Source: an uncultured Alphaproteobacteria bacterium
GTDB taxonomy: Bacteria; Pseudomonadota; Alphaproteobacteria; Rhizobiales; Xanthobacteraceae
Direction: 5' to 3'
Assembly: GCA_963732455.1 (NCBI GenBank)
Contig: CAVSZM010000006.1
Coordinates: 131,141 to 195,140 of the forward strand
Length of the DNA: 64,000 nucleotides
Shown here: positions 23,551-25,031 of the stretch, in pieces
How the letters are laid out: each line of letters begins with the position of its first letter
Numbering within the stretch: position 1 is the first letter of the stretch
Made by a program: the position numbers and the translations under genes
The notes under the pieces: model-generated
Database searches by the model: none
What the model saw: the letters and a program-made list of their open reading frames with translations, nothing else
What the model was told of the DNA's origin: nothing

Positions 23551-23575
23551 CCCCGGACCCGTTCGGGGGCTTTTT
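23551..23575 (+). terminator. Rho-independent terminator
   Basis: CCCCGGA-CCCG-TTCGGGG stem followed by CTTTTT, after the FAH gene. Confidence 0.7.
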
Positions 23576-23684
23576 GCGCTCGAATTTGCACCCTTCTCCG
23601 CGGAACCACGGATAAATTCGCAGTCCGTTAACCACGCGCACATTAAATGAGCTGATAGCCACGACACTTGCGCCGGAGCCGCCG

Positions 23685-25031
23685 ATGACCCCCGACTGGA
23701 ACGCGATCCGCCTCGACTTGCTTCAGATCGACGAGCCGATGCGGATGACGTTACGGGAGATGCGGCCGCTTTTCGCAAAATCCCTGCCGGGCATTCTCGC
23801 GGAGTTCTACGACAACGTCCGGCGCTACGACCCCTCCTCCGGCATTTTCAAGGAGGGAACGATGCAGGAGGCCGTCCGCCTGCAGCTGCATCACTGGGAC
23901 CTGATCGCGGCCTGCGAATTCGGCGCGGCTTACGCAAGTTCGGTCGCGCGCATTTGCGAGATCAATCAGCGCGCCGGCGTCGCGCCACAATGGTATGTCG
24001 GTTGCCGGCTGATGTTCATCGCCGACCGCTTGATGAAGGCGGTTGAGACCGAAGTCCAGGTTCCGCGCTTCGGCCGCGCCGCGCAGGCCGCGCGCGACAA
24101 GAAGGCCTCGATGCTGAAAGCCATCGCCCGGGCCAATATGCTGGACACCGAAAACGTCGTCGCGTTTTATTTCGGCTCCAACCGTCAGATTCGCAAGGAC
24201 ACGATCGCCGAGGCCAGCGACCGCTTCCGCGCCATCATCACTTCGTTGTCCACGGCATCAAACGAACTCGAAACCACCGCCCGCGCGCTGAGCGACAATG
24301 CCGGCAACACCACGCGGCTTGCCACAGTGGTCGCCAATGCCTCGGAAGACGCCTCCAACAATGTGCGGTCGGTGGCGTCGGCGACCGAGCAGCTCGCCAG
24401 TTCCGTGCGCGAGATTTCGGCGCAGGTCCAGGAGTCCAACCGTATCGCCGCCAGCGCCGTGAAACAGGCCGATGAGACGGACTCGCGCATCAACGCACTG
24501 TCGCAGGCCGCCAACCGGATCGGCGACGTGATCAAGCTGATCACCTCGGTCGCCGAACAGACTAATCTTCTGGCGCTCAACGCCACCATCGAGGCGGCGC
24601 GCGCGGGCGAAGCCGGCCGCGGCTTCGCCGTGGTGGCGCAGGAGGTCAAGGCGCTCGCCGCCCAGACCGCCAAGGCCACCGACGAAATCGGCGTCCAGAT
24701 AGCGGGCATGCAGACCGCGACGCAGGAGGCGGTCGGCTCGATCAAAATGATCAGTTCGACCATCGGCAAGATTTCCGAGATCACCGGCGCGATATCGGCG
24801 GCGATCGAGGAACAGGGCGCCGCCACCCAGGAAATTTCCGGGAATATCCAGCGTACCGCCGACGGCACTTCGCAAGTCGCCGGCACCATCGCCGAAGTCA
24901 GCCAGGGCGCCAACCAGACCGGCGCGGCATCGAGCCAGCTATTGTCATCGGCGAAGCAATTGTCGGTTTCAACGACCAGCCTGCAGGCCGAGATCGACGG
25001 TTTCCTCAAATCGATCGCGGCTGCAGCATGA
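23685..25031 (+). CDS. Soluble globin-coupled (protoglobin/HemAT-like) methyl-accepting chemotaxis protein with atypical heme site
   Basis: N-term globin pattern (FY, QxxHW, PxWYxG), no TM helices, C-term [29 protein letters not shown]. Confidence 0.85.

Follow-up and report, generated by a model that had tools for sequence, protein, structure and literature searches.

The window analyzed here, a stretch of 64,000 nucleotides (contig CAVSZM010000006.1 of assembly GCA_963732455.1, positions 131,141 to 195,140) from an uncultured alphaproteobacterium of the family Xanthobacteraceae, a soil Bradyrhizobium, contains a gene for a globin-coupled chemoreceptor in which the proximal heme-ligating histidine (His F8) of the sensor globin is replaced by asparagine (Table 1). 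Globin-coupled sensors generally count as heme-based gas sensors, and a His at F8 is normally required for inclusion in a census of globins. Proteins such as the present receptor are therefore either discarded or labeled an ordinary "globin-coupled sensor protein." Only two Pfam domains were detected in the receptor, Protoglobin (PF11563, residues 9 to 164; 67 bits versus a cutoff of 25) and the signaling domain of methyl-accepting chemotaxis proteins (MCPs) (PF00015, MCPsignal, residues 247 to 412; 113.6 bits; E value, 1.1e-32). Likewise, NCBIfam returned MCP equivalogs only, all of them below threshold. The N-terminal sequence MTPDW is common to 119 of 121 close homologs, a set that consists of the query and its best 120 matches in a collection of 5.8 billion proteins. 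The gene is the sole protoglobin gene in its own genome.

Table 1. Features of the receptor locus, with positions in the window and equivalent residues in Bacillus subtilis HemAT (HemAT-Bs) according to the phmmer alignment
Feature	Position	Strand	HemAT-Bs equivalent	Basis or remark
Coding sequence, 448 amino acids; soluble globin-coupled chemoreceptor with HemAT-type architecture	23685..25031	+		Open reading frame list, Pfam
Sensor-globin (Protoglobin) domain, residues 1-170	23685..24194	+		PF11563, AlphaFold2, Foldseek
MCP signaling domain, residues 247-412, with canonical hairpin-tip sequence	24423..24920	+		PF00015
Tyr42, distal B10 tyrosine, kept	23808..23810	+	Tyr70 (B10)	Alignment to HemAT Tyr70
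Q67-L-H-H70, start of the E-helix motif (Q67-x-x-H70-W71)	23883..23894	+	Thr95 (Gln67), His99 (His70)	Alignment; the W71 codon is next, at 23895-23897
Cys91 (TGC), topological position F5	23955..23957	+	Ala120	Gly in canonical relatives
Asn94 (AAT), position of the proximal His F8	23964..23966	+	His123	Sequence, alignment to HemAT
Tyr104			Tyr133	Alignment
Cys107-Arg108 (TGC CGG), G helix	24003..24008	+	Ala136 (Cys107), Phe137 (Arg108)	Canonical Gly-Tyr; a one-residue insertion then follows
Shine-Dalgarno sequence GGAG, 6 nt 5' of the ATG	23675..23678	+		Read from the sequence; conserved in orthologs
Conserved upstream block AAATTCGCAGTCCGTTAACCACGCGCACATTAAAT	23614..23648	+		Alignment of ortholog upstream regions
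Terminator-like hairpin and T-run 3' of the FAH-family gene	23551..23576	+		Stem 23551-23568, 7 pairs, then GCTTTTTGCG

A phmmer search of the PDB sequences with the first 182 residues of the receptor gave a sole match, HemAT-Bs (1or4/1or6; E value, 0.0018). The alignment is free of gaps over residues 69 to 108 and pairs residue 94 with His123, the proximal ligand (F8) of HemAT-Bs. The earlier note on this DNA had assigned Asn94 to the proximal position by comparison with a segment of B. subtilis HemAT, and the alignment confirms that assignment. When 1.84 billion cluster representatives were searched exhaustively with HMMER, identity dropped abruptly from 56% or higher to 44% or lower, and the distant relatives that cover the F8 column carry His there, within the motif IGExHxRIGLEPRWYIGGY, with a single Tyr exception. 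As His occupies this column in 118 of the 118 canonical relatives used in the conservation comparison described below, the assignment of the F8 column is robust. P0189 (467 amino acids, a cluster representative of the canonical type) has Tyr at the F8 column (RIGEAYARSGFDPRWY); either the proximal His was naturally lost here as well, or the sequence may contain an error.

The best 120 matches share 73 to 84% identity with the query in the globin domain and originate mainly from metagenomes of soil and from metagenome-assembled genomes of Bradyrhizobium or Xanthobacteraceae. Among the 121 close homologs (query included), residue 94 is Asn in 117 and His in 4, and an Asn clade is recovered in the supported tree (see below), which answers in the affirmative the question raised in the earlier note of whether Asn defines a clade. 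The clade comprises more than 120 protein clusters at 90% identity and is represented in about 10% of Bradyrhizobium species genomes. Protein P0077 of Bradyrhizobium erythrophlei, a culturable carrier, is one of its members. When 401 species genomes of the same genus were searched, 47 gave a match at an E value of ≤1e-30, about 40 of which are orthologs; the other 354 (about 88% of the sampled species) had no globin-MCP match at this threshold. In the 38 readable ortholog copies of the genus, the F8 residue is Asn in 32, His in 4, and Ser in 2. The Asn forms use AAT or AAC, and the His forms use CAT. Public annotations of clade members read "globin-coupled sensor protein" or "methyl-accepting chemotaxis protein." It is firmly established that a true HemAT-type ortholog has exchanged its heme-iron ligand and that the exchange is real, inherited, and selected.

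Positions conserved in at least 80% of the 118 canonical relatives were compared with the same positions in 171 sequences of the derived clade. Twenty-five family-conserved positions are unchanged in the derived clade (among them F41, Y42, F55, A63, Q67, H70, W71, Y83, G98, P101, W103, Y104, D154, and Y162), 8 have switched to another conserved residue (F12L, G91C, H94N, L99V, G107C, Y108R, M155T, and D156E), and 1 is relaxed (V87). With the exception of the N-terminal F12L, the switches sit on the F helix, the FG corner, the G helix, and the H helix of the predicted structure. The proximal half of the globin therefore carries the switches, and the distal half is untouched. Tyr42 is present in 100% of the canonical relatives and 99% of the derived clade, and Q67, H70, and W71 reach at least 98% in both groups; the retention of the B10 Tyr (FY42) and of the QxxHW motif, which had been read from the single sequence, is accordingly a property of both groups, in which these residues are nearly invariant. 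Clade-specific gains are Cys107 (99%), Cys91 (94%), and Met110 (97%), and the clade-specific residues N94, C107, R108, and M110 as a set are 94 to 99% conserved. The earlier note had also described three cysteines (77, 91, and 107) around the pocket. Cys91 and Cys107 are indeed conserved in the clade, but Cys77 is variable, with Gly in 71 and Cys in 42 of the 121 close homologs. Furthermore, Cys91 is exchanged for Ser, Phe, Asn, or Gly in several members of the Asn clade. A three-cysteine site was rejected on both of these grounds.

The structure of residues 1 to 182 was predicted with AlphaFold2 from a 28-sequence alignment that ranged from canonical to derived forms. The model (mean pLDDT, 90.6; pTM, 0.83) has helices at residues 5 to 12, 17 to 25, 27 to 48, 59 to 75, 81 to 96, 101 to 123, and 131 to 181. 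The top matches in a Foldseek comparison with the PDB were AfGcHK (5ohe and 5ohf), a Thermosynechococcus globin domain (8h17), HemAT (1or4 and 1or6), GsGCS (2w31), and BpeGReg, with TM scores of up to 0.81 on the target, a probability of 1.00, and E values around 1e-3. Phycocyanins were matched weakly (E value, >0.1; TM score, about 0.4), and no RsbR structure was present among the 50 matches listed. The structure prediction that the earlier note had named as a check thus returned a confident sensor-globin fold, with heme sensor globins as its best matches.

Gene order in the Asn clade is conserved and runs from an ABC transporter gene through an FAH-family hydrolase gene to the receptor gene, followed by genes for a flavin monooxygenase (FMO) and S-adenosylhomocysteine hydrolase (AhcY). 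The ABC transporter and FAH-family flank was also found beside a receptor with Gly94 (L022) and beside a form that is remodeled on the proximal side and keeps His94 (L024). The AhcY flank was likewise found beside the canonical His forms L023 and L025. Because of these common flanking genes, the Asn-bearing receptors are positional orthologs of canonical, His-bearing receptors of sister genera and not paralogs.

A careful maximum-likelihood tree was calculated with IQ-TREE under the LG+C20 model from 61 species-level sequences, with column 94 left out. The derived lineage as a whole received full support (100/100) and has Cys91 where canonical forms have Gly, Arg108 in place of Tyr, and Ser, Thr, or Cys at 107 in place of Gly; in addition, it has a one-residue insertion in the G helix after position 108, AGVAP for IGLEP, and YFGSNRQ for YLDAG. 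A His-keeping clade (L021, L024, L083, L084, and L086) is nested inside the derived lineage (100/99). The Gly form and the Asn clade group together (99/88), and the Asn clade on its own is supported at 98/86. A quick tree of 163 sequences agrees with the careful tree. Since the His-keeping forms share the remodeled proximal side, remodeling came first and the ligand was lost later. The first step comprised G91C, the change of Gly107-Tyr108 to Ser/Thr-Arg, the G-helix insertion, and the change at the FG corner, with His94 still in place. In the second step, His94 was replaced by Asn in the large clade that includes the receptor of this window, where Ser107 also became Cys, whereas a small sister lineage acquired Gly instead. 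When the His-bearing intermediate P0137 served as the query, 2 proteins only were returned, which indicates that the intermediate lineage is poorly sampled.

Within the crown of the Asn clade, His occurs again in three places. L067 and L068 are sister to the Asn form L059 (100/100), L011 is sister to the Asn form L061 (99/94), and L004 and P0029 lie within a group with 95 to 97% SH-aLRT support in the quick tree, a placement that is unresolved in the careful tree. Ser occupies F8 in L057 and in the broken copy L087, both also inside the Asn crown, and arose there in one or two events. The starred branches of the careful tree require the Asn label to change at least five times in every bootstrap tree. 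By parsimony with the canonical outgroup, Asn would have reverted to His at least three times independently. No substitution accompanying the return of His was common to the revertant lineages.

Several of the smaller lineages show further changes. The Gly lineage (L022 and P0272 to P0274; mutual identity, 75 to 90%) is another lineage without His and the sister group of the Asn clade; it combines Gly at F8 with a Cys at 97, either Phe or Tyr at 91, and the replacement of Tyr104 by Ser or Thr. In the sister lineage that keeps His, the distal pocket is rebuilt as well. There, B10 is Cys and not Tyr in L083, L084, and P0271, and these three and L086 have His at the position of Gln67. In P0123 (209 amino acids; His94 and Ser91), the globin is joined in frame to approximately the last 25 residues of the MCP domain, an internal deletion that leaves a stand-alone globin.

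Selection was estimated by the Nei-Gojobori method, with orthologs compared with the window sequence. Within the Asn clade, the ratio of nonsynonymous to synonymous substitution rates (dN/dS) is 0.14 to 0.37 for the globin domain and 0.05 to 0.14 for the MCP domain, values that denote purifying selection on both domains and a functional globin domain. The latter range, together with the PF00015 match and the canonical tip sequence, agrees with the description of the MCP domain as intact in the earlier note and marks this domain as highly constrained. The ratio of globin dN to MCP dN is 3.5 to 4.0 in the Asn clade and reaches 3.0 in the derived clade that keeps His, compared with 0.9 to 2.4 in nine canonical pairs of comparable divergence. 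This ratio, which is not a formal test, suggests that the constraint on the sensor is partly relaxed. In one Bradyrhizobium subclade (L077, L078, L079, L080, and L085, from genomes G358, G654, G390, G493, and G312, respectively), remnants are all that is left of the gene. These remnants, apparently decaying copies, keep the Asn-type globin part, with further small deletions in it, and the MCP part is deleted or frameshifted.

In architecture, the receptor resembles HemAT-Bs (1OR4/1OR6) and HemAT-like receptors of alphaproteobacteria, for example, Atu1027 of Agrobacterium (PMC10851874), in which a soluble N-terminal sensor globin is followed by a C-terminal MCP hairpin within about 430 to 450 amino acids. 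Like HemAT, it belongs to the Protoglobin family of Pfam and keeps the B10 Tyr, Tyr104 (HemAT Tyr133), and the PxWY motif. Unlike HemAT, it has Asn for His123, Cys for Gly at F5, and Cys-Arg plus an insertion for Gly-Tyr in the G helix, and these differences on the proximal side make heme binding doubtful. The protein therefore has the fold and architecture of a globin-coupled sensor and lacks the defining proximal His. The N-terminal domain of the stressosome sensor RsbR, a non-heme globin (PMC8717448), is also a signaling input domain with a sensor-type globin fold and no proximal His, and a related fatty-acid-binding globin sensor has been reviewed alongside it (PMC8717448). However, the receptor differs from RsbR in its Pfam family (Protoglobin), in its output domain (MCP instead of STAS), and in that the loss of His is recent and lies inside an otherwise heme-type family. 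The comparison with heme-less RsbR globins drawn in the earlier note holds as an analogy, in the absence of the proximal His from a sensor globin, but neither the Pfam result nor the 50 Foldseek matches listed place the receptor in the RsbR globin family. Photoglobin and phycocyanin are globin folds that have no proximal His yet keep a pocket for a tetrapyrrole-like ligand (PMC8717448), a point of similarity, whereas the phycocyanin matches of the receptor in Foldseek were only weak and a B12-binding partner domain was not found in the receptor.

Noncanonical heme ligation has been described in HGbRL of Methylacidiphilum infernorum, a globin of the sensor family (PMC4476040). In HGbRL, the E and F helices are fused and the heme is coordinated by Lys and His, in contrast to the separate E (59 to 75) and F (81 to 96) helices of the model presented here. 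A survey of rhizobial globins listed residues other than His at F8 in some globin-coupled sensors, for which its authors suspected an alignment artifact (PMC4648194). The Glu given there as F8 of rhizobial globin-coupled sensors was considered and rejected as most likely artifactual, as a Glu stands two residues before the His in IGExH. No description of a His-less clade of HemAT-type or MCP-coupled globins was found in the literature searches made here.

The interpretation that we favor, and to which we give about an even chance, is that the receptor contains a sensor globin that is heme free, or at least not His ligated, and that still drives an intact MCP domain. The gene is the positional ortholog of the soluble alphaproteobacterial aerotaxis receptor of the HemAT type, with a sensor globin fused to an MCP domain, and the change took place in one soil lineage of Bradyrhizobium and Xanthobacteraceae. 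With the iron ligand missing, a classical five-coordinate heme is most likely no longer held, and without such a heme, O2 would no longer be sensed in the manner of HemAT. The receptor has probably given up conventional heme-based oxygen sensing. The sensor module, which is retained, folded, and under selection, would then answer another cue, which the unchanged MCP hairpin would relay to the single CheA/CheW pathway of the genome. The cue could be a small ligand that sits within or between the helices, comparable to the heme-independent binding of ethanol by HemAT, or the redox state of the new cysteines. Precedents support this interpretation, since non-heme globin sensors are known (RsbR, phycocyanin, and photoglobin; PMC8717448) and the globin domain of HemAT senses ethanol independently of heme (PMC7542364).

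Several observations weigh against a heme-free sensor. The loss of heme is deduced solely from the missing ligand. His has returned repeatedly at one site, where Ser is the sole other replacement seen, which suggests that the geometry of the proximal site is still there. F41, Y42 (B10), F55 (CD1), Q67, and Y104 are still 91 to 100% conserved in the Asn clade, and the retention of these distal and heme-contact-type residues would fit a pocket that holds a tetrapyrrole as well. The newly conserved Cys107, Cys91, and Met110 could serve as alternative ligands. Part of the faster globin dN could stem from an unusually constrained MCP domain, and the decaying copies in one Bradyrhizobium subclade indicate that the gene is dispensable in some lineages.

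The main alternative, possible if rather doubtful, is that heme is still bound through another axial ligand or attachment, be it a thiolate of Cys107 or Cys91, Met110, or a distal residue such as His70 or Tyr42, which would give a ligand-switching redox or gas sensor and not a site of the O2-carrier type. Distal and heme-contact-type residues that are as conserved as in the canonical relatives, the clade-specific gains on the proximal side, reversions to His that imply a site still accepting an iron ligand, and the closeness of the model to heme sensor globins are all consistent with such ligation, and HGbRL, a putative globin-coupled sensor, coordinates heme with swapped proximal and distal sites (PMC4476040). 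However, Cys91 is older than the loss of His and has itself been exchanged in several Asn-clade members, and from globin topology, residues 107 and 91 would lie at the edge of the heme and not under the iron. Arg108, in place of an aromatic residue (HemAT Phe137), and the G-helix insertion may disturb the hydrophobic heme pocket, the sister Gly lineage lacks Tyr104 too, and the literature searches made here turned up no sensor globin whose heme is ligated by Cys. That heme or another tetrapyrrole is still carried by the Asn clade without His, through a thiolate of Cys107 or Cys91 or through covalent or edge attachment, appears quite improbable to us. If true, the receptor would be a naturally occurring globin chemoreceptor without His ligation, one that reports redox state or a gas by ligand switching, and the scattered His revertants would form a ready-made series in which canonical ligation is restored.

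The globin might also sense nothing, either as a dimerizing scaffold for an MCP that acts in the array only or in a gene that is drifting toward loss. The globin dN at 3 to 4 times the MCP dN, above the canonical pairs, would agree with this, as would the truncated or frameshifted remnants, the large share of genus species without a globin-MCP match, and the tolerance of Asn, His, and Ser at F8. Nonetheless, we consider it unlikely, because the dN/dS values of the globin domain point to continued selection across many species, the clade-specific residues N94, C107, R108, and M110 are highly conserved, the locus and a conserved promoter block (see below) are maintained, and the remnants that lose a domain drop the MCP and not the globin. 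Finally, AAT could be a sequencing or assembly error for CAT in an ordinary heme-binding HemAT, as the two codons differ by a single A/C change. The chance of this is negligible. The orthologous clade as a whole has Asn as its consensus, across independent assemblies and metagenomes, and both Asn codons are in use, which excludes a base error in practice; even with His94, the protein would fall in the remodeled and not in the canonical lineage.

Non-heme globin sensors as such are already known. What the present locus adds is a well-populated, selected clade of true HemAT orthologs without the iron ligand, in which the remainder of the sensor and the chemotaxis output are kept. One conserved locus holds a stepwise natural series, from the canonical His form through a remodeled pocket with His to Asn or Gly, with an occasional return of His. 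This natural F8 series is an experimental handle on what a sensor globin does without heme and on how a gas sensor becomes repurposed. The capacity for aerotaxis that is inferred from soil metagenomes would also be affected.

The receptor gene is apparently transcribed alone, as a terminator-like hairpin lies behind the FAH-family gene. The terminator is weak evidence on its own, since a hairpin scan found 2 such sites versus 1.9 expected by chance. Between this hairpin and the gene, a block of 35 bp located 37 to 71 bp 5' of the ATG has a column conservation of at least 80% in 48 ortholog upstream regions and probably serves the receptor gene as promoter or operator. Within its own genome, the block is unique and has no matches elsewhere above the rate of the reversed control; as matches in the genome did not exceed those of the control, its use as a regulon marker was rejected. 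No match to a sigma-70 consensus was found in the block. A reading as an EcfG-type promoter (GGAAC-N16-17-CGTT) was rejected as well, because the spacing is 19 nt and GGAAC is not conserved.

The receptor's own genome (G000; contigs C5, C6, C16, and C20) encodes 4 MCPs and one CheA/CheW cluster. Contig C5 carries a CheW gene and an open reading frame of CheA size (917 amino acids) with a CheW-like domain. The receptor therefore has a pathway to feed, and the chemosensory repertoire is small for a genome of 6.5 Mb.

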